DNA of 64,000 nt from Ostreococcus lucimarinus (lineage: Eukaryota). The stretch's first letter is position 1. Each line of letters opens with the position of its first letter. Under the pieces are notes generated by a model that saw nothing but the letters and a program-made list of their open reading frames with translations, was not told where the DNA came from and did no database searches. This document shows positions 3,030 to 48,644 of this stretch, one piece after another. Location of the stretch: the NCBI GenBank assembly GCA_000092065.1, contig CP000582.1. One strand, written 5' to 3'. The position numbers and the translations under genes were made by a program.

Positions 3030-3107
3030 TGAAAAATGAAATGGCGACGACTGCGTGGCTGCACTTTCGTCTGGTGCGCTATATTTTGTTATTTATTTCG
3101 CTATTTA

Positions 3108-3238
3108 TCAGTATGTATTACTTTCCAGGCTCTAATGTATGGGGTCTCGATCGCCACGCGCGCGTTGTGGCGTCGTCGCGAGTTATTAGCACTTCGACGG
3201 CGCGCACGTATAAGGCCCGGGAAAGTGATAATGATTAA
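3108..3238 (+). mobile_element. Degenerate copy of a Stowaway-like (Tc1/mariner-type) MITE
   Basis: The left end TCAGTATGTATTACTTTCCAGG is preceded by TA. The interior matches the 29872..30004 copy in reverse complement (ggctctaatgtatggggt... cgagttattagcacttcgacgg). The right TIR is decayed (cgggaaagtgataatgattaa). Confidence 0.7.
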
Positions 3239-29686: not shown

Positions 29687-29871
29687 GAAGGCGTTCCTCG
29701 CTCGTTGTGTCCAGTTTTAAAGCGCTAGAAGTACTAGCTTTTCACAAGCTCCAATATCAATCGAGCGTGCTCGTAACCGGACTCACTCTTTGAGGCTGCG
29801 CGCTGCGAACGAGGCAGCGAGCGGCGTCCGGGGATTGGTTTTTTGTAAAATTTGTTAGGATTGATATGATA

Positions 29872-30004
29872 TCAGTATATATTACTTTCCACGTCCCCAA
29901 TACGTGCGTACCGTCGGAAGTGCTAATAACTCGCGACGACGCCACAACGCGCGCCTGGCGATCGAGAAGTGCTAGCACCCCATACATTAGAGCCTGGAAA
30001 GTAA
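29872..30004. mobile_element. Intact Stowaway-like (Tc1/mariner-type) MITE, 133 bp, with 20-bp TIRs and TA target-site duplication
   Basis: The left TIR is TCAGTATATATTACTTTCCA. The right end tggaaagtaatacatactga is its reverse complement with one mismatch. Flanking TA dinucleotides are at 29870..29871 and 30005..30006. It sits about 190 bp upstream of the PsbP-like gene. Confidence 0.8.
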
Positions 30005-30195
30005 TACATACTGATATCGGATAGATAGATATCCAACGCCAAAAATGTTTTTCTGGCGTTGGCGTGTCGTACTTGTCGCAGCGTTCGCTTTCTCCACGCG
30101 GCGCAAAGCGTGAAGGAAACCTGCAAAGCGTGAAGGAAACCTGCAGACTCGTTCGCCCGCAAGTGTACGTAATCTCGATTGAGATAAGTTGATAC

Positions 30196-39032: not shown

Positions 39033-40756
39033 CTAGTTCAAGTCACTAGAATTTATAATCGATCCATCTGTGCCCATGACCAATGTTCTTGGCACCCAGC
39101 CACGACCGTAGTCATCGCAACCTAAATCGCGCAGTGCCGCACTTCCAACATCAATACATGACCTCGGATGCAAAGCCTTCAGGTCGTGGAGTTGAGCTGT
39201 CACATTATTGGCCACGAGATAATCCTAGTATATGCTACTTTTAAAAAATAAGAAGGTAAAACAATGATGTTCATACCCTGGTATCCTGATTTCTAACCGC
39301 AATATTCCTGATGAGAATACAGCATTGACGAAGAACTTTACCACAAGTTTCCTGTGGCATCAACTCTAACAGCTGATCGACCCCACCATTTGCTCTCAAT
39401 TCATTAGAAACTTCTACATTCCGAAGCGCCAAAGCCGCCAAAATACTGATCGAGTTCTCACGCACTGAACTTACTGGGGTAATTTACACTCAGATACAAT
39501 GCGATAGAGTAGTAAACCGCTCACCTTCGCACGTCATTAAGGAGACAAAAGTTTTGATAACGTCGAACTTTAGCAGGATTTCTTTGCGCGAGTCGGACAA
39601 TATAAGGCGCCGAACGCATCTGCAGCAATGGTTCAGTAATACTGCGTCCCTTCGACGAGATATTATTGCCTGTGTGGACATGACAAAATTTGACATCGAC
39701 ACAACATCAAATTCACATACCAGTAAACTACTTAAAACATCTTCTGGCACGCTCCTACATATCTTCTCGCTTGTCAACAGGTGAGAAAACTGCATATGCT
39801 GTGAAACAAGATTCTTGCATAGGGAAGCTTTACTTACTAGCTTGAATAAGACCACAGATGTCTCAAGCTGACTCGACTGTACTTGTTGGAGAATAGCTGC
39901 GGTTCCTCAGATTGCTGATTTCACAGGGACGGAAATTACTACATACCGTCATTAACTTTCGCCAACAATCCATGCTCGTGTAATATAAGCGCATGTCTAT
40001 ATTTATTGCTTGTTGAACTCTCTCTGTCATCGTCGATTAAAATCGCGGAGAAGAGTTCACAAATCGCCCGCATCAAGACTACATCAGAGGCACCAAATGC
40101 TTCAGTGAGGATGGTGAGCGTGCGCTCCTGGCATCTCTTGAGTCTTGTTCAATGAAGAGCGAAAAGTAACGTACGGTCTTCATCAAAATTATTTTCGCAT
40201 CACCGTGCTCCTTCGTGACACTTGCTAAGAAAGAGCACAAGGAAGTCGACAACGTTCGGCATTCCAGTAAAGTGAGGAATGCGGCACTTTTCAAGACTAG
40301 ACGTCGGTTCTCGTGTATGATCATCATCGCTGTGTAGGTACGAATGAGACAAAAAATACGAAAAAAACTTTTACACGCACCTGTTAAACAATTTAGAGCG
40401 CGGTCGCGTAGTGTTTGAGCCAAAGTTGTTTTGCAGCAAAATTTTAGAAGAATTTCTATGATTTCTCTTTGACCAGCAGTGCAAGCGAAGTCGACGATGT
40501 TTGGACGGAAAACAGACTGATCTGACAAATATGATTCGAATGAGACGATCGCAGACGTGAGCTTGTCTTCTTCACTATTTCCCCAGGTTTCATCTTCTAT
40601 CTCAGCAAGAGGACAGATCGAAGTCAGAAAAGTTTGCACAACTGCTGTGAAAGTATTGCAGTTGACTTGTGATAAGCTTGTCGCAATGCTTGAAATATCG
40701 AAGCCCTGCAAGGCAAACTCCTCTCTAGCTTCAATCTGGGCTGTAGTCGCATCCAT
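39033..40756 (-). CDS. Multi-exon gene, probable armadillo/HEAT-repeat protein (ORFs 40079..40756, 39490..39855, 39271..39465, 39033..39215)
   Basis: Several same-strand helical-repeat-like ORFs sit together (e.g. LLELMPQETCGKVLRQCCILIRNIAVRNQDTRV). The family is not assigned and the exon joins are not resolved. Confidence 0.35.
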
Positions 40757-41200
40757 TCCGAAGTTTTCTACGTACGAAGTAACAGCTTCATCGTATGCTT
40801 CCTGTAGGTCGGTTGAACAAAATACCCAAAAACAGGCTCATGACCGACCTGTGAGAGACGCATCACATTCGGTCGCTTTCGCTAGATTTAAGACTATTGC
40901 TCGCGACCTAGGTGAAAACGTAACAGTTGAAACTCACCGCGCGCGCTGGATTTTTGTTAAACTTGAAACTGTGCGTCTTCAAACTAGGGCGCTCGGCGCT
41001 TCGCCGTCCAGTTTGTCTTTGCACCACTCTGCAGTCTCGTCTCCCGCTTTCTAGCCTTCATACGCTCTAAGATAAATAAAGTTCAGTCGACAATTTGACA
41101 GATGAAACCACTCCGCGAAAACAGAAAACCGAAGCAGTTACCCATAGTCGCTGGACTACTTCGTGTCGGGGGACGCTGTGCTCACCAAGGACGGCAGTAA

Positions 41201-44200
41201 ATGTCGAACACAGATGATCGCTTTGCATCTCTCATGCAAATTTCACGCGATGACCCCAGTAATTCAGATGATTACTTTTGGGTGCGCTTGAGTGCCGCGG
41301 AAAGCTCGGCGCTCAGTGTCGATCCGTTGACCCTTCAGAACGAGATACATGCGGATCATGCGATGGTCAATGGGCTTTTGCTGAATGCAGACACAAATTT
41401 CATAGAAGCACAGCGATTAAGCATCGGTTCCTGGTCCAGAAAAGAGTTGAGAACGAACACGAAGATCACGTACCAACTACCGAAATCGGATTTACTTGCA
41501 GAAAATCTCGAAGGTTATGCACGAGCGCTGTCAACACTTAGAATGGATTCGCTCACGACGTCAGGAAGACGTCACTCGAAATTGATCGTCGAAAGCCACA
41601 CTCTTATGGGCCTTTTCAAGCTAAACCCTCTCCGGGTGTTCGATTTAGTCTTTGACTCAGTCAGAGAACTTGCTGACTCCAAACACGGCGATGCTTTTGC
41701 AACATCGTTGGAATCTAGTACTCATTTAAGCGATATAATAGGGTTTCGCTTGACAAGGTGCGCCGATTTCAAACGACGACACAAAATCGCCCAGTTCGAG
41801 CTGAAAATCGCTGCTGAAAAAGAGAACACTGAAATCGGTAGACTGTATCCTTACCTGCTCCCAGTTGACCGATCTCTGTATGATAAAGCCCGAAGCTTGC
41901 AAGGTGTATCGCCCGTAGACGAGTTATACTCTGATGAGCCAAAGTTTTTGTTTCTGGAATCGACTGGAAGTAAAGCCGGTTTGTTGCCTATTCAAGCGTC
42001 GGTCGAAAGGATCATCAGACTGGGTTGTGGTACTCATGCCCTGCCGAAACTTCGGGCGAAAATGTGTGAGCAACTTAAAAAGAGAATACATGACGAGAAG
42101 GAAAAACATGACGAGAACCAGAAATTGGAATCTATTCTCCGCATCGTCTTCTTTCTTGGACCAAATGTATGCTGTGATGCAGCTCTAACGACTGAACTTC
42201 TTAAGTACTTCCAAAGAGTTGTCGCGAATAAAAGAGAGCATTTGAAATTGATCGAACCTGCTATTGCAAAGTGTTTGCTACCAGGATTACCACTTCTGAG
42301 GCCGAATCCTTTAATATGTGAATACATCTGGAAAGTTGTCCATCAACTTCCGCTTGCATCACGCGGAAAAATATACAAACACGCCATGTTTGTCACGTGT
42401 AGCACTCGACTGACTCAGATAAAGAGTTCAGCCGATAAATCAATAATGAGGATCTTACGAAGATTGTCAAATCAAAATGCAAAAGAGCTCGGCCGTAAAC
42501 TTGGTAAGCTCGCACTTTGTCACCCTTTAACGGTGACGAAAGCAGTACTGCAACAGGTTCAGGCGTATCCAAACATGATTGCACCGATCGTGCAAGCTTT
42601 GAAATACTGCACCGCACTAACTTTCGATACTTTGACCTTTTCTGTCCTCGAACATTTTACCGAGACAAAATCCAAACTCAAAGAAGATGGCCAAAACTTT
42701 TCGCTATGGTTTTCTGCTTTGTGTTCTTTTTCTGGAACATTGCTCAGACAATACCATGACATTGAACTTAATGACCTATTGCGGTACATTTTGAAAAAAT
42801 TAGACGAAGGTGAAGTGTTGGATTTATTGATATTAAAGGATCTTATATCGAAATTGACTGGTATCGAAATCTTGAAGGATGTCAGTTCGCTTGAGATTCA
42901 AAGAATGGCGGCTGGAGAAAAACTTCGAGGACTTCACGAGAACTCTACGAGCACTGACTCAAAACGACGGATGAAAGGAATTTTGCGTTTACGCACAGCA
43001 ATTGAAGGGTCGGACGCTTCGAAGAGTATGATGCTTCGATTACTATTAGCAATAGCGAAATGTCGCCAACGAATTGTTCTGAAGACGGCAAGTGCTCAAA
43101 TGAAATTTTTGGGTCAACTTTTTGATGAATGTCACGTTGTTCTATTGCAGTATATTTCGTTTCTTCACACAGCTTACAGTGTAGCAGAGCTCAAGAACTC
43201 GCTGCCAGAGATCCAATCTCTTCTGTGTGAACACCAACTTGATGCTGCTGTCGTTTTCCATTTGTATCGTCCAATTCTTCGGCAAACACTATTTTCATCT
43301 CTGGATACAAGCAGCTCCCTTGCTGAAAGTCACAATCAATACTGGAAGAAACTAAGCAGAGATGTTAAGGCAAGTCTCCATTCTGACGAGCTTTGGGGAT
43401 TGGTATCGCCAGAATTCTACCTCACTTTTTGGTCGCTCAATCTCGAGGATGTTTACGTACCCAAAGAGCTGTATGCAAAAGCGCGCGCGCGGACTGTGAA
43501 ATATGGTTCAACTGCATCGTCAACGTTTGATCAAGTTACTCAATTGCCTAGTAATGTTGTTCACGACGAACTGGCCGAGAGTTTAAACGTAGAGCTGCAA
43601 CAACTTATTGAACATGTTTCCAGAGGTACACAGTGTATTCTGAGAAAGAACTCAACCTGGGTGCAGACTGCGGATAATTTGTCTCCTGCGAGTGTCATTT
43701 TGGAAACATGTGTACTACCAAGGTGCAAAATCTCACACGCTGATGCGTTGTATTGCTCAAATTTTGTGGAGCTTGTTGGTCGAAGTGACACAGATTCCTT
43801 CAGTTTTATTCAGTATTACGATACACTATTCCGTAACGTATCATATCTCATCTATGCTTGCAGTGAATTTGAAAACAAATTTTTTGCTACTTTCTTGACG
43901 AGTGGTATGGCTCAGCTCACACGTTGGAGAGCGTGTGATGTATATAAGAGAGAGTGCTGGCAGCGCTCTGAATTTCGTAATTGCTTGAATCAGAGCAGTG
44001 TCGAAGCAAGTTTCAAAGACTACTTGAGGGTTCTGTACAAATGGGAGCATAGGTTGACGAAAGGCATCCTGCGTAATCTACAGAACGAAGACTACATGGA
44101 AGTCGCCAATTCGTTGAGCTCTCTAATAGCAATCGTTGATACATTTCCTGTCACTGAACTTTTAGGCAACTATATCTACAGCCAAGTCAAAAGAATCAGT

Positions 44201-44320
44201 ATGAGGGACAAGAGGGACGACATCAAAACAATATCGAACAGATACCTATCACTTCTGAATTTAAAACGGGCAAGTTGGAAATGTGTTCCACCCGAGGACG
44301 ACAGTGCAAGTCAGAGTTGA
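41201..44320 (+). CDS. THO2: THO complex subunit 2 (THOC2/Tho2)-like protein, 1039-aa ORF, probably N-terminal and central domains only
   Basis: The segment LHSDELWGLVSPEFYLTFWSLNLEDVYVPKELY matches the conserved Tho2 motif (..LSP.FY.TFWSL...D..VP...Y) as I remember it. The rest is a long alpha-helical protein. It ends 200 bp before a transposon-like insertion. Confidence 0.55.
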   Translation: MSNTDDRFASLMQISRDDPSNSDDYFWVRLSAAESSALSVDPLTLQNEIHADHAMVNGLLLNADTNFIEAQRLSIGSWSRKELRTNTKITYQLPKSDLLAENLEGYARALSTLRMDSLTTSGRRHSKLIVESHTLMGLFKLNPLRVFDLVFDSVRELADSKHGDAFATSLESSTHLSDIIGFRLTRCADFKRRHKIAQFELKIAAEKENTEIGRLYPYLLPVDRSLYDKARSLQGVSPVDELYSDEPKFLFLESTGSKAGLLPIQASVERIIRLGCGTHALPKLRAKMCEQLKKRIHDEKEKHDENQKLESILRIVFFLGPNVCCDAALTTELLKYFQRVVANKREHLKLIEPAIAKCLLPGLPLLRPNPLICEYIWKVVHQLPLASRGKIYKHAMFVTCSTRLTQIKSSADKSIMRILRRLSNQNAKELGRKLGKLALCHPLTVTKAVLQQVQAYPNMIAPIVQALKYCTALTFDTLTFSVLEHFTETKSKLKEDGQNFSLWFSALCSFSGTLLRQYHDIELNDLLRYILKKLDEGEVLDLLILKDLISKLTGIEILKDVSSLEIQRMAAGEKLRGLHENSTSTDSKRRMKGILRLRTAIEGSDASKSMMLRLLLAIAKCRQRIVLKTASAQMKFLGQLFDECHVVLLQYISFLHTAYSVAELKNSLPEIQSLLCEHQLDAAVVFHLYRPILRQTLFSSLDTSSSLAESHNQYWKKLSRDVKASLHSDELWGLVSPEFYLTFWSLNLEDVYVPKELYAKARARTVKYGSTASSTFDQVTQLPSNVVHDELAESLNVELQQLIEHVSRGTQCILRKNSTWVQTADNLSPASVILETCVLPRCKISHADALYCSNFVELVGRSDTDSFSFIQYYDTLFRNVSYLIYACSEFENKFFATFLTSGMAQLTRWRACDVYKRECWQRSEFRNCLNQSSVEASFKDYLRVLYKWEHRLTKGILRNLQNEDYMEVANSLSSLIAIVDTFPVTELLGNYIYSQVKRISMRDKRDDIKTISNRYLSLLNLKRASWKCVPPEDDSASQS

Positions 44321-44538
44321 CAGGACACGACTCGCACCAACCATATCGTGGTAATGCTGAATGATGCTAATTTTGAGCTATCGACGCAAACAACTCTAGA
44401 CCTAAATTTAGTGGTTTACCATCAAATGATCACACACGCCGACGGTACGCAACTTGCTATCGAAACCAAGGTTTCTCTCGTAAGTGTTCTCACAGCAGCG
44501 CCTCCAGCACCGTGCGCTTGCATACGTATCATATCATA

Positions 44539-45957
44539 TGATACTACCTCCATTCGGAAAGTAATGAGAATGAGCCTTGTTATACGCGATGTCACAGGAT
44601 ATCGAGGCGTGCCGTACATGGCTAGAAAGCTGTTGAAATTTCCCGTACGCTGGCGCAAGTTCCCCTGTGTGAATGTGCGTAAAATCGCCGATGCATGATG
44701 ATTTCCATTTTGCTTCATTTACAAAATGATAGGAAAATGCGAAAAAAGTTGCAAAAGTTCGAGAGCGATTTAGCTAAATTTTCACCCCTCTTAGGGTTTT
44801 GTCCTTTTCTCTACGCATGTCCGCCCATCGACGAAGAAACTCTCTACGCGCGTGCTCCGCGCGTCAGCGCGCGCGCGGACGTCACTAATGGACCCGGGGT
44901 GCGACGGAGAGCTCGCACGCTAAGTTTCACATGATTTGGCCGCTTGGTGTGCTAAACCGAGGCACTGAGCGCCGAGGGAGCGACGAGGAGCGCACGCCAT
45001 CAAGTTCGAATCGCGCGCGTCGACGGACGAAGTTGGAGGTTCACGGCGACGCGCGTACGCGACCGAAGAGCGCGAGGCTGCGGAAGCGTAAGGAAACACC
45101 CTCGCGCATAGTTCCCGGCCCTCTGTTGAGTCCGTTCAAGGCTCCAAGCGGCGTGCGCGCGCGCGATGGACGGGAACTGAGCGACACGGAGAGAGCCGCT
45201 TTCGCGAAGTGCATGCACTTTGCGACGCGTTGCGGACAAGCCTCGGTAGCAGACGTATGCAAGGAATGGGGAATAAGCAAGTCTCATGGATACAAGATCT
45301 TAAATCGGTGGCGAACGGAGGAGAGCGTCCAGTCTCGACCCAGAAGTGGGCGCCCACGCGCATTGACGGAGGAGGACATGCACACGCTCGAGTGCCTGTC
45401 GGAAGAGCTCAAAGGTTACTTCACGTGGGAATCGCTGGCGAAGCGGTTCACGGAAAAAACAGGTAAGCGCGTGTCGTGTACAGCTGTGTATAGTTCTTGT
45501 AAATCAGCCGGCTGGCGCCAAGTGTGCGAGCGTTATGTACCTTGCCTCAGCGCAACAGACGTGGCGAGAAGATTGGAGCAATACCATGAATACCATGACC
45601 GCGAGAGACTTGAGAGGTGCTGGGATGTCAAAACCGCAGTCACTAAATGCATCCTCGACGCCAACGGAACGAACGATTACAAGCTACCGCACGGTATCAA
45701 GCACGAGGAACCCATTTTTGTCGATATTTTCTTAGATTCGGACGATACAGACGATCCGGTGGCGCGCACTTTGGACTACGAAGGTCTGCATGCCTCACTC
45801 CCTTCTTCTCTCCCACGATAAATTTATGTTGCAAAAGTTGCGACCCCCTCGATTTTCCTCGAGTTGTAACTCAAGAAAAAAAACGCGGAAAAAAGACCCC
45901 CTCACGATTTCACGAATCACGAACCGTCTCATTACTTTCCGAATGGAGGTAGTATCA
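44539..45957. mobile_element. Tc1/mariner-like DNA transposon remnant: 31-bp inverted repeats flanking an ORF that encodes only the paired-type HTH DNA-binding domain (no DDE domain)
   Basis: Perfect inverted repeats sit at 44539..44569 (tgATACTACCTCCATTCGGAAAGTAATGAGa) and 45927..45957. There is a TA at 44537..44538. The internal ORF 44931..45821 contains CKEWGISKSHGYKILNRW ... SGRPRALTEEDMHTLECL ... GKRVSCTAVYSSCKSAGWR, the Tc1-type bipartite HTH. The TIRs share ATTACTTTCC with the MITE TIRs. Confidence 0.6.
44931..45821 (+). pseudogene. Truncated Tc1/mariner-type transposase gene (HTH domains only, catalytic DDE region absent)
   Basis: See the element above. The 296 aa have a basic, low-complexity N-terminus followed by two HTH units. 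No D..D..E triad is visible. Confidence 0.5.
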
Positions 45958-46010
45958 GTATATATTACTTGCCACGTCCCTAATACGTGCGTGCCATCGG
46001 AAGTGCGTAC
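45955..46010 (+). mobile_element. Truncated copy (5' 56 bp) of the Stowaway-like MITE, abutting the right inverted repeat of the Tc1-like remnant
   Basis: tcagtatatattacttgccacgtccctaatacgtgcgtgccatcggaagtgcgtac matches 29872..29928 (tcagtatatattactttccacgtccccaatacgtgcgtaccgtcggaagtgct). Confidence 0.6.
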
Positions 46011-46921
46011 GAACCCCGTTTCTCAGTTAGACTTCCAATTCCTCAAATTATATCGGCGTTTATATCATTAAATATGTCACATGTGATCGTGTACTCATCT
46101 TTAAAACTACGGTGCGTTACGGACAGGTCACGTGGCGTTTCCCCTCGTTTGTCGGACGTATACTTCGTCACTCCTGATCAATCTTTGAGAGAAATGGACG
46201 GCGTTTGGAAGCTGAGAAGTGTGTCCAAATTTGTGACGACCGACAGCCTCTGGGAAATGGGTCCACACCGATACTCGGGTTTCATACGCTACAACGTGGC
46301 TGGGGGGCTCGTTAGCGTGTGCTTTAGTCCTTACGACAAAGTAAACCATTTGACAATTTTCACTGGGCGATCTTCACAGGGGTTGATATCCTTCGTCAAG
46401 GTTGATGACTCTCCACTGTTTCACTTATCCACGCTCTAAAGATTTGTAGGTTGCGCTCGCCCTATACGTTACCTTGGTGAGTTGTTTTCGTCATAAAGTA
46501 GTTGCCTATGCTGGTAAAGTATCTGTACACGCAAGTACGTCGTTCTGATGGTCAGGAATCGCTCACGAAATTAATCTACGAAAGGCGGCGTTGTTTCACA
46601 TATTCTTCACACGTTCACTGGACAAGTATCTGCGGCTGCAGTAGAGGTTAGTCAGTTCTGATTTCTTAGCAACGCACACCAATTTTGTGAATAGGGAAAA
46701 GGGGAATTAAAAAGAACTTATGCGCTTTACAAGGTAATGACTCTTTTCATGACCGAAACCTTCATTCAAGAGAAAGTTTTCGCCTAGTATGGCCCATGTT
46801 TGAACATGTTATCCTTGAGAACACACGAAGAGAAAGAAAGACTTTGCCTTATATGGAAAAAGCTGTAAATTATCGGAATGATGAGCAAAGAGTACAAAAA
46901 CGGTACTCCAGAAGTGCACAG

Positions 46922-48644
46922 CTACCAAGGCACCTTAGTATAGCTGTGCATGTCATGTATACCGCCCTCTCGCTGAGCTGCGCCAGTTCGCGCCTCCATC
47001 GTCATCGTTCCACTAGCTAAAATCTGATGCGCTTTTGTAAGTGAATCCGCTCCGAGATCTTGAAAACCTTGCTTGACACCGTGCACGAGATACGGAATCA
47101 TAGTTTTCACAGAGCCCTTGTCTCGAACCGTACCAGATACACCTTGAGCAATCTTCAGGTGCCCAGATTCGCTCAGATAGCGAGAATCGCTCCCCTTCTT
47201 CATAGCGTCAAGGCTACCCATTCCACGATACTTTTTTACGCGGACGCCGTCTTGATAGAAGTATTGTCCTGGTGCTTCTGTGGTACCCGAAAACATAGAA
47301 CCACACATGGCGACACTAGCCCCAAGCGCCAACGCTTTGACAATGTGGCCACTGTTTTGGATGCCTCCATCGGCGATGATAGGAACATTGAACTCTTTAG
47401 CTATTTGCCCCACCTTGTAAACGGCTGTCGCCTGTCCTCGACCAACGGCACATACTTCTTGTGTTGTACATATACTGCCGGAACCCATACCAACGCGAAG
47501 CCCGTCAGCGCCAACTTCGAGTAGACGTCGAGCCTGATTCTGTGTGACAACATTTCCAGCGATTACATCCACGTGCGGAAGCTCGTTTTTCAAGTACTTG
47601 ATCATTTCTAGCTGATAAATAGAATCGCCTTGAGATGAATCCAGAATGATGGCATCCACTCCAGCATCTGCGAGATATTTAGCGCGGACACGATCGGCGT
47701 CTCGCGTTCCGATGGCGGCCCCACACAGCAAACGACCATGTTTATCGATAGAAGGAACTCCACTTGGTGGTCTATTTAACCTATCTTTTATGGTCGCTCG
47801 CGTCAACAAGCCAATCAAATATCGCTTTGCATCTACGATGGGTAGCTTTCCCCTTTTACTCTCAAGAAGAATTTGCTCGTTCTCTTGTGCACTCTTCTCG
47901 GTAGAACCGAGCACCAGGTCGTCGACGGAAGTCATGACTTCAGAAAGTAAGGTGTTGCGATCGCGCACAAGTTCAGCGTCACGAGTAGTTACTAAACCGA
48001 GTAGAGCACTACCACAAGTTCCACTTTCACTGATGCAAACTGAGCTGAAACCTCGAGCTGCGCGCAACTCGTCCAAATCTCGAAGTGTTGCACTTGGGCG
48101 CAGAACTGCCGGATTTGCGACGTATCCGGGTCTATGCGACTTGACTATCTTCGCATGTTCAAGTTGAGATTCCATCTACGACGAATCATAAGTTAGAGAC
48201 GTAAAAAATGCGTTGGACTGTCGTACCGCCATGTTGTAGTGAAGGAAACCCATCCCTCCAGCCTCAGCCATTGCGATGGCCATATCAGACTCGGTGACTG
48301 TATAAATCCATTAAGCCTTGTAAATCGTAAAGATATAGTTGCGACCAACCTGTATCCATCGGAGAGCTCACCATTGGCGTTCGGATCGACACATTTCTAC
48401 TCACTCGTGTTGAGAGATCAACCTGTGGGTGTTTGAATCAAGTTGCTGTTAAGTGCGTGCCGAACGATCAAACGTACCTGGTCAGCCGCAAAATCGATGA
48501 AACCAGGATGGAAGATAACATCATCGTATGTGTAGCAAAATCCTAGTCATGAAATTGGTAAGCCGCGAAGAGTCGAAACACACTTCGGCTTCACTTACCC
48601 TGGTTGAAAAGAGCCTCGCCGGGGAAGCCATCGAGGGAAGCCAT
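46922..48644 (-). CDS. IMPDH: Inosine-5'-monophosphate dehydrogenase (IMPDH), about 6 exons
   Basis: The large 3' exon 46922..48175 has GSMGSGSICTTQEVCAVGRGQATAV, the CBS pair and the C-terminal flap. The 5' micro-exons found in reverse complement are MASLDGFPGEALFNQG|GTAAGT (from 48644), YDDVIFHPGFIDFAADQ|GTACGT, VDLSTRVSRNVSIRTPMVSSPMDT-, -VTESDMAIAMAEAGGMGFLHYNMA|GTACGA, then cgtcgtag|MESQLEH... The motifs match IMPDH N-termini. Confidence 0.85.

Follow-up and report, generated by a model that had tools for sequence, protein, structure and literature searches.

A probable internally deleted, non-autonomous mariner-like element next to THO2 in Ostreococcus lucimarinus

Plant mariner-like elements such as Osmar and Soymar1, which form the DD39D group, are the autonomous partners of Stowaway MITEs, and the canonical internal-deletion derivatives of class II transposons are Ds, which stems from Ac, and deleted copies of P and Tc1. 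Ostreococcus lucimarinus has been described as nearly transposon-free. At survey level, Tc1/mariner elements are already known in the Mamiellales (bioRxiv 10.1101/2025.04.21.649811), and for Stowaway and plant mariner elements the terminus consensus CTGCCTCCRT next to a TA target-site duplication (TSD) has been reported (PMC3695323). Internal deletions bounded by microhomology are an established route from Tc1/mariner elements to non-autonomous derivatives, as in the Ozma-derived Gnome, Elf and Goblin elements of Aedes, where the deletions show 6-8 bp of microhomology (PMC3814204). Here we describe a locus of O. lucimarinus that very probably carries a 1,409-bp non-autonomous deletion copy of a mariner-like element of the plant/algal DDD clade, mobilised in trans. 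It is an ordinary element of a known sort.

The window, a stretch of 64,000 nucleotides from contig CP000582.1 (assembly GCA_000092065.1), lies in a low-GC region of the genome. A repeat search returned two arms of 31 nt each at 44539-44569 and 45927-45957, which are 100% complementary and 1357 nt apart, in agreement with the preliminary description; the 31-mer occurs in the window twice, as these two arms, with an expectation of 0 from shuffled sequences. The idea that the arms are the ends of an element holds for the inner 26 bp, which are the terminal inverted repeats (TIRs), whereas the remainder consists of the TA TSD and 3 bp of flank. We took these outer 3 bp (TGA/TCA) as flanking DNA that is palindromic by chance, because at other family copies the sequence beyond the TA is unrelated. 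A TA directly outside the TIR was seen at every end, with at least nine distinct flanks (at least five left and at least four right), and the two ends of the element part company past position 26 (Table 1).

Table 1. Positions of the element, its parts and the neighbouring features in the window
Feature	Position	Strand	Remarks
Whole element	44544-45952		1,409 bp; 26-bp TIRs and TA duplication
Left TA target-site duplication	44542..44543	.	TA directly outside CTACCTCC at all ends examined
Left TIR, 26 bp	44544..44569	+	CTACCTCCATTCGGAAAGTAATGAGA; perfect complement of 45927-45952
5' subterminal untranslated region	44570..44930	+	Colinear with the long copies L012, L013 and L008 over their 5' part, 99-100% identity
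ORF, 296 aa	44931..45821	+	Basic N-terminal extension, bipartite HTH, C-terminal tail; catalytic core absent
Deletion junction	45574..45578	+	Single TGGAG remaining from two TGGAG microhomologies
3' subterminal region	45822..45926	+	96-99% identity to 3' ends of other copies
Right TIR, 26 bp	45927..45952	-	
Right TA target-site duplication	45953..45954	.	Doubles as the TA bordering the MITE remnant
Truncated MITE remnant	45953..46006	+	First 54 bp of about 147 bp, terminus TCAGTATATATTACTT...; 92.6% identity to 29870-29923
MITE family copies in the window	29870-30016; about 3106-3230; 45953-46006		TA-flanked
THO2 ORF	41201..44320	+	Pfam Tho2 1-305/305, plus Thoc2 and THOC2_N; complete
IMP dehydrogenase (IMPDH) ORF	46922..48175	-	Pfam IMPDH 5e-95; converges on THO2

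The ORF of the element encodes exactly the protein XP_001416162.1 of O. lucimarinus CCE9901 (100% identity), which is already carried in RefSeq as a "transposase-like protein". It had been read as a Tc1-type bipartite HTH without a catalytic domain, and the Pfam analysis bears this out: HTH_29 matched aa 101-148 (45231-45374) with 29.4 bits, above its gathering score of 28.1, while HTH_Tnp_Tc3_2 (aa 165-216, 45423-45578), HTH_32 and HTH_23 matched below cut-off, and no DDE family was matched. HTH_Tnp_Tc3_2 is above cut-off in the long relatives. A tblastn search of 44300-46200 in all frames with the catalytic core of full-length relatives likewise found nothing (best E 0.44), in line with the HTH-only view. 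The window copy has the TA TSD, the TIRs and the bipartite (paired-like) HTH of Tc1/mariner elements and lacks a DDE/DDD RNase H-like domain of its own. It is a non-autonomous member of the Tc1/mariner (ITm) superfamily, non-autonomous because this domain is deleted here and present in long members of the family. The 296-aa protein, with its basic N-terminal extension of 82 aa, is predicted to be incapable of catalysing transposition and could at most bind the TIRs of the family. With 1,409 bp and this ORF the element falls outside the definition of Stowaway MITEs (under about 500-600 bp, no coding capacity), to whose size its 668-bp relative L014 is nearer.

In an alignment with the 440-441-aa relatives P0016, P0028 and P0042, a single gap of 228 columns takes out D167, D281 and D327. 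The long copy L012, an element of 2,033 bp with a 504-aa HTH+DDD ORF, reads ...GATTGGAG|TGGGC... and ...CGTGGAG|CAATACC..., and the window reads ...GATTGGAG|CAATACC..., with TGGAG as 5-bp microhomology at the junction. Measured against L001, the deletion is 681 bp (227 codons); against L012, which itself is without 19 aa ahead of the second D, it is 624 bp. Apart from the missing 624-bp segment the window copy is colinear with L012 at both ends, with 99.8% identity over the 5' 1,035 bp and 97.1% over the 3' 379 bp, which is the structure of an internal-deletion derivative. Judged from these alignments, a mariner-like element of ~2.1 kb gave rise to this young, non-autonomous copy; the term decayed remnant does not suit a copy with perfect ends, one clean deletion and such identity to L012. 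Apart from the 2,033-bp and 1,409-bp forms, the size series of the family includes P0002, a frameshifted sister derivative, and, from a sister subfamily, L014, which keeps CTA(A)CCTCC termini and subterminal sequence. Of the long copies with these ends, L008 is degenerate and has a stop codon, and neither it nor L012 is a fully intact copy from the reference strain. The exact TIR was found in none of L003, L004 and L005; the right end of L004 has diverged (CTAACCTCCGTG..., then TA), and its left end is missing from the contig.

The comparison shows that a long element lost 681 bp between the two TGGAG repeats, and the microhomology together with class II transposon biology makes it likely that the loss followed an excision, through abortive gap repair or microhomology-mediated end joining. 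With the RNase H-like core went the three catalytic aspartates; the reading frame was kept by chance, so that the last ~80 residues now follow on the N-terminal basic region and the paired-type HTH domain, and both 26-bp TIRs stayed intact. This resembles Ozma- and Ds-type derivatives, which also show one internal deletion with short microhomology, keep both ends, need transposase in trans and occur in several sizes per family. Unlike those, the element described here is 1.4 kb long with a 296-aa ORF and not a MITE, it was seen at about three sites, and its trans-mobilisation is deduced from assemblies.

Since neither Pfam (E up to 10) nor a PDB profile search recognised a DDE/mariner catalytic family in the full-length relatives, the element was classified from remote homologues and by a search with a modelled fold. 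Homologues of the part that the window copy lacks occur in Orobanche, Salvia, Epithemia, Amphora and Pylaiella, with E values between 1e-17 and 1e-23; with the catalytic region of P0016 as query, the Orobanche and Salvia proteins matched over 89% of its length (E 1e-21 to 1e-23). The AlphaFold model of P0016 (pLDDT 81.5) matched the Mos1 mariner transposase (3hos, E 1.6e-10), the catalytic domains of Metnase (3k9j) and Sleeping Beauty (TM 0.71-0.76, normalised to target) and additionally Pax paired domains. Mos1 and Hsmar1 (Metnase) are the best structural matches and have the DDD chemistry in common with P0016, but they differ from it in sequence (13-18% identity), in their DD34D spacing and in their TIRs, and the window copy is without the entire matched domain. 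The DDD triad is conserved, and the second and third aspartates are 45 residues apart in P0016, P0028, P0042, P0035 and L012, compared with 39 in the flowering-plant homologues and 38-46 across the wider algal set. Best hits and motifs place the family in the plant/algal DDD clade of the Tc1/mariner superfamily. In common with plant mariner-like elements it has the TA TSD, the terminus CTACCTCCAT (9/10 positions of the published consensus), the paired-type bipartite HTH, a DDD triad with the third-aspartate motif ...QPxNSPDxNxxDL.FF..., a catalytic region directly homologous to flowering-plant DD39D proteins and a host within the Viridiplantae, here a green alga. It differs from them in the spacing of 45 instead of 39, which sets this subfamily outside DD39D proper, and in the basic N-terminal extension, and its catalytic half is missed by the Pfam DDE/mariner models.

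The identical 1,409-bp element with its junction was found at three flank pairs, each in at least two independent assemblies (ocean metagenomes and the window): the THO2/IMPDH locus (window, L020 and L021), a Na/H-exchanger locus (L019 and L027) and a desaturase locus (L022 and L026). TA-flanked copies therefore exist elsewhere, and the same 1,409-bp form at three TA sites suggests that the short derivative was mobilised in trans. The assemblies indicate that transposase from long copies would still be able to excise the derivative at its ends and insert it at TA dinucleotides. In this way the identical derivative may have reached three or more TA sites, one of which lies between the convergent genes THO2 and IMPDH, at the rim of an older MITE remnant. 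All insertion sites other than that in the window come from short-read metagenome assemblies, which mis-join through this repeat, and L012, with the left flank of THO2 and the right flank of the desaturase locus, is a proven chimera. The private SNPs of L019 and L022 sit near the ends, away from the junction, so that chimeric assembly paths are formally possible, and over 45484-45806, which spans the junction, all short copies are identical, so SNPs there cannot separate independent copies. In L009, L010, L015, L016 and L017 the right flank of L019 and L027 is joined to a long-type interior, so that some short elements at new loci could also be former long copies, converted in place by ectopic gap repair. 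Copies are very few: about three sites were seen.

As the IMPDH gene converges on THO2, the element lies in their shared 3' intergenic region. The stop codon of THO2 is located 223 bp upstream of the insertion, close to the distance of about 200 bp given before, and the further suggestion that the insertion truncated THO2 at its 3' end has to be abandoned: the Tho2 domain is covered completely, the stop lies in native sequence, and each of the eight closest homologues (969-1,052 aa) stops 1-13 residues past the aligned region. An open stretch of 126 codons beyond the stop was considered as a lost C-terminus and rejected, since the window protein and its homologues share their end point; the RNA-derived contig, which is unspliced there, also speaks against it. 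THO2 is thus full length and undisturbed by the element. No splicing across the element region was seen in this contig, L013; its gaps are introns of a minus-strand gene. The HTH match, the TA-flanked copies at other sites and the lack of splicing, on which the preliminary description had let its case depend, all favour a transposon.

The preliminary description had offered three origins for the element, a nested insertion, a decayed autonomous partner of the neighbouring MITE family and a domesticated DNA-binding gene, and the nested insertion is the best of them. The truncated MITE next to the right repeat is real and abuts the element, and removal of the element together with one TA restores ...ATATGA-TA-TCAGTATATATTACTTGCCA, which equals the MITE terminus as found at 29862-29891; a THO2 locus without the element would read ...CATATGA-TA-TCAGTATATATT.... 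The element is inserted at the edge of this older remnant. It is highly improbable that the MITEs in the window are its miniature derivatives. Both families are TA-flanked, and the 10-mer ATTACTTTCC/GGAAAGTAAT is indeed present within the TIRs of both (five exact copies in the window, all in these elements), so the shared core noted earlier is genuine, but it faces the element end in one family and the opposite way in the other, and blastn of either MITE copy against the short element, the long element and the 668-bp relative revealed no further similarity. Moreover, the MITE terminus reads TA|TCAGTAT..., that of the element TA|CTACCTCC..., and the real miniature relative of the family is L014 with its CTA(A)CCTCC termini.

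Selective retention of the HTH-only protein, either as a KP-like repressor acting on the TIRs of the family or as a host transcription factor, seems quite unlikely to us. The deletion is in frame, the intact ORF retains the basic region and both HTH motifs, the RNA-derived contig L013 spans the first 648 bp of the ORF, and among 11 short-copy sequences variable sites are under-represented in the ORF (5/891 bp vs 14/518 bp, Fisher p = 0.0013). However, the surplus of non-coding variants is made up of multi-site haplotypes common to several copies, as exchange between copies would produce, a deletion stays in frame by chance in 1 of 3 cases, and with 99.8% identity to long copies over the 5' part the intactness of the ORF needs no selection. 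The SNPs in the ORF are three non-synonymous and no synonymous ones, a very small sample that gives no sign of purifying selection, L027 carries a 2-bp frameshift, and the sister derivative P0002 is frameshifted as well. A domesticated gene is expected to have lost TIRs and TSD and to be fixed at a single locus; this element has perfect TIRs and an intact TA TSD and occupies three or more loci. Even less credible, and hardly to be entertained, is that the window assembly was collapsed or mis-joined at this point, giving a false deletion, and that the real locus holds a full-length element. L012 (DNA) and L013 (RNA-derived) do join the left flank of the window and the 5' 1,035 bp to an undeleted interior, and the extra segment is the same in both (100% identity). 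Against this, L020 and L021 carry the 1,409-bp form and run from one unique flank to the other, with 99.95% identity over 8 kb, the junction is repeated in L002, L023, L024 and L025, and the RefSeq protein has the same 296 aa. L012 is the chimera, because its right flank belongs to the L022/L026 locus, and a full-length allele at the THO2 locus, as L012 and L013 had seemed to indicate, was rejected for this reason.

We therefore regard the locus as an insertion of a deleted mariner-like element, for which the exact ends, the TA duplication and the deletion that causes its non-autonomy are new here, as are the kinship to the mariners that mobilise Stowaway elements in plants, with an unusual DD45D spacing, and the evidence from assemblies for recent movement of a derivative in wild Ostreococcus populations. 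The importance is modest, and the false lead of a THO2 disruption is removed. In its architecture the HTH-only protein resembles the KP repressor of the P element, in which an in-frame internal deletion keeps the DNA-binding N-terminus and removes catalysis, and such a protein could compete for TIRs. It is conceivable, if doubtful, that the protein is made in the cell and inhibits its own mariner family in a trans-dominant manner, by binding the CTACCTCC TIRs without cutting; the intact ORF at three loci, the NLS-like basic region, both HTH motifs and the RNA-derived contigs over this region are compatible with such a role. If so, the protein would help to hold the transposon load of O. lucimarinus very low. 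As the host is described as nearly free of transposons and insertion sites differ between ocean samples, the family could serve as a population marker, and it is possibly a starting point for a native transposon tool.

The window copy is a young mariner-like transposon made non-autonomous by an internal deletion. Its 296-aa ORF is present and scores above the gathering threshold for Pfam HTH_29, with weaker matches to HTH_32, HTH_23 and HTH_Tnp_Tc3_2 and none to a DDE family, in agreement with the HTH-only transposase ORF of the preliminary description; a search of the element region for DDE remnants likewise detected no catalytic remnant in any frame. The ORF product matches, at 100% identity, the Ostreococcus lucimarinus CCE9901 entry "transposase-like protein" (XP_001416162.1 / ABO94455.1). 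Its homologues include the 440-441-aa proteins P0016, P0028 and P0042, and an alignment with these revealed a single 228-column gap from ...ARRLE to QYHEYH..., which contains the motifs IDIDEKWW, VQMDGARPH and NSPDTNLNDLCFF carrying two invariant aspartates, D167 and D281, and a third, D327, that is nearly invariant. In long copies the breakpoints (slashes) read ...GATTGGAG/TGGGC... and ...CGTGGAG/CAATACC..., and the window junction reads ...GATTGGAG/CAATACC...; by this comparison, the window copy has lost the stretch between two TGGAG repeats, 681 bp compared with contig L001 and 624 bp compared with L012. An assembly artefact is excluded as the origin of the deletion, since contigs spanning both flanks carry the short form and the RefSeq protein agrees. 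In the AlphaFold model of P0016 (pLDDT 81.5) all β-sheet core strands are predicted to fall in the deleted residues 135-361, helix 126-138 would lose just its last four residues, and helices 3-110, modelled as two HTH units, would be spared. An arginine/lysine-rich extension makes up the first 82 residues of the window ORF, ahead of the methionine at which P0016 and P0028 start; it is kept in P0013, P0026 and P0032 and could be a nuclear-localisation region or just a conserved 5' leader.

The catalytic half of the long relatives goes unrecognised in Pfam and PDB sequence searches. Homologues of the lost region were found in Orobanche, Salvia, the diatoms Epithemia and Amphora and the brown alga Pylaiella (E 1e-17 to 1e-23), intermediate homologues gave weak DDE_3 matches, and the DDD triad is kept in 34 of 35 aligned sequences. 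The P0016 model resembles the Mos1 mariner transposase (Foldseek, E 1.6e-10) and the catalytic domains of Metnase and Sleeping Beauty (TM 0.71-0.76, normalised to target). With the TA duplication, the terminus CTACCTCCAT agrees at nine of ten positions with the Stowaway/mariner consensus CTGCCTCCRT (PMC3695323). The family is homologous to, and works like, the plant mariner-like elements mobilising Stowaway MITEs, but these have DD39D spacing, whereas the second and third aspartates are 45 apart in the element's subfamily and 39 in the flowering-plant proteins.

A repeat search of the window confirmed the perfect 31-nt inverted repeat (spacer 1357 nt), whose 31-mer is absent elsewhere in the window, with none expected by chance. 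Family ends were collected at many loci by scanning JGI metagenomes with the inner TIR and by looking up identical proteins. All ends examined read TA followed by CTACCTCCATTCGGAAAGTAATGAGA, and the flanks outside the TA are dissimilar (at least five different left and at least four different right), so the true element is a 1,409-bp unit with 26-bp TIRs. Thus, only the inner 26 bp of the described repeat are TIR; the TA outside it is the target duplication and the TGA...TCA beyond is flank. In-silico excision of the element and one TA restores ...ATATGA-TA-TCAGTATATATTACTTGCCA, the terminus of the intact MITE in the window. The adjacent MITE remnant (54 bp) is truncated and shares 92.6% identity with the intact one, and is therefore older than the element, which shares 99.3-99.4% with its copies at other loci. 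We infer that the element inserted at a TA bordering a remnant already in place.

Coordinates of features in the window (unless a contig is named) and contigs carrying related copies
Feature	Position or contig	Strand	Remark
Introns of neighbour gene	39474-39524, 39790-39837, 39897-39946, 40330-40380, 40802-40848	-	absent from L013
Sixth L013 gap (53 nt)	39224-39284		no canonical splice placement, within 9-bp repeat
Inverted repeat arms	44539-44569, 45927-45957		
Element	44544-45952		
TA duplication	44542-3, 45953-4		
296-aa ORF	44931-45821		
N-terminal extension	44931-45176		aa 1-82
MITE copies	29870-30016, about 3106-3230, 45953-46006		
Short form, THO2/IMPDH locus	window, L020, L021		
Short form, Na/H-exchanger locus (form 3)	L019, L027		Tara sample; another project
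Short form, fatty-acid-desaturase locus	L022, L026		two samples
Form 1, ...CAAGATATATTTAGCCCCGAGGGGC site	L010, L016		long-type interior, 3' haplotype of short copies; L015 grouped at same site
Form 2, ...CAAGATATATTTAGCCCCGAGGGGC site	L009 2475-3408, L017 5771-6704		5'-truncated long copy, another haplotype
Sister-subfamily derivative	L014 4572-5239		668 bp
Degenerate, 3'-truncated long copy	L008 4985-6593		JACLAB010004467.1, GCA_014466335.1; 99.1% identity over 5' 1,035 bp
Element fragment	L003 2861-3451		591 bp, 91% identity; same assembly as L008, presumably a further Ostreococcus or a metagenome-derived genome

Three flank pairs enclose the identical 1,409-bp derivative, junction included, with TA on both sides at each, a pattern as expected for trans mobilisation by long copies, whose transposase would move the short form into TA sites. 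Such copies exist: L012 encodes a 504-aa HTH+DDD ORF, and the P0016-type ORFs are further examples. The short form was probably moved to the THO2/IMPDH locus in trans. In L012 (1-2772, Ga0315320_10001472) a 2,033-bp long element stands between the left flank of the THO2 locus and the desaturase-locus right flank found in L022 and L026; the contig reflects either chimeric assembly through the repeat or true recombination between two copies. The multi-locus evidence has to be read with the caveats that L012 combines two loci, so that assemblers do mis-join through the element repeat, and that the SNPs telling short copies apart sit near the ends, away from the junction. Contigs with long-type interior also exist at the Na/H-exchanger locus, where the insertion site occurs in three forms, and in L010 and L016 the 3' haplotype is exactly that of all short copies. 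This haplotype may reflect an origin of the deletion at this locus, and would also allow ectopic gap repair converting resident long copies. Nine of the 11 differences between the window and L012 in the 3' part fall within 57 bp directly past the junction (45588-45644), where L010, L016 and all short copies agree with the window; the cluster suggests that the family has two 3' haplotypes or that the template was switched in repair.

The suggestion that the HTH-only ORF is a domesticated gene or a repressor under selection finds no support. Variable sites among short copies are rarer inside the intact ORF than outside (p = 0.0013), but the differences in non-coding sequence consist of shared multi-site haplotypes, all three ORF SNPs are non-synonymous, one copy carries a frameshift, and the element has intact TIRs and sits at multiple loci. 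The 296-aa protein may have a KP-like inhibitory side-effect. We also reject the element as the autonomous partner of the MITE family. The MITE TIR holds the reverse complement of a 10-mer from the mariner TIR, but this string is inverted relative to the ends, the MITE termini (TA followed by TCAGTAT...) differ from those of the element, and nothing else aligns. This family is low-copy, TA-flanked and about 147 bp long with termini TCAGTAT[A/G]TATTACTTTCCA, and three of four ends are preceded by GA-TA, giving a GATATC palindrome; no autonomous partner was identified for it.

The location between the convergent THO2 and IMPDH genes is harmless, and the possible 3' truncation of THO2 did not hold up. 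The Tho2 domain is complete (Pfam, 1-305/305), the stop codon lies in native sequence 223 bp upstream of the insertion, and in the eight closest homologues (969-1,052 aa, at 31-43% identity) 1-13 residues follow the part aligned to residues 1026-1033 of the window protein, which is 1,039 aa long. Between 40849 and 45578 the RNA-derived contig L013 runs colinear with the genome, and no splice in it takes out the THO2 stop or spans the 5' part of the element. RNA coverage continues from THO2 into the element, in a contig that merges several transcripts, as a spliced minus-strand gene is also included (five 47-51-nt GT..AG introns removed), so that the strand is not assignable. The THO2 frame stays open for 126 codons past its TGA (44321-44698), into the transposon; since the homologues end where THO2 ends, this looks like chance.

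Other, independent internal deletions hit related elements: a MITE-like derivative in L014 (83% identity to the window element, CTAACCTCC termini, TA TSD) retains the first ~470 bp and last ~160 bp, and P0002 is a frameshifted form of 387 aa. The same pattern is known for other Tc1/mariner elements (PMC3814204). The feature was correctly spotted in the preliminary description and is an ordinary one, already annotated as "transposase-like". Over 14.8 kb, metagenome contig L007 matches the window at 100% identity. The window's GC is 0.43-0.49, far below the roughly 59% given for standard Ostreococcus chromosomes (PMC5082852). O. lucimarinus is described as largely without TEs, and the low-GC "outlier" region of Mamiellales concentrates introns and transposons (bioRxiv 10.1101/2025.04.21.649811). 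The low GC and very short introns of the window fit such a low-GC outlier region or chromosome of Mamiellales genomes.
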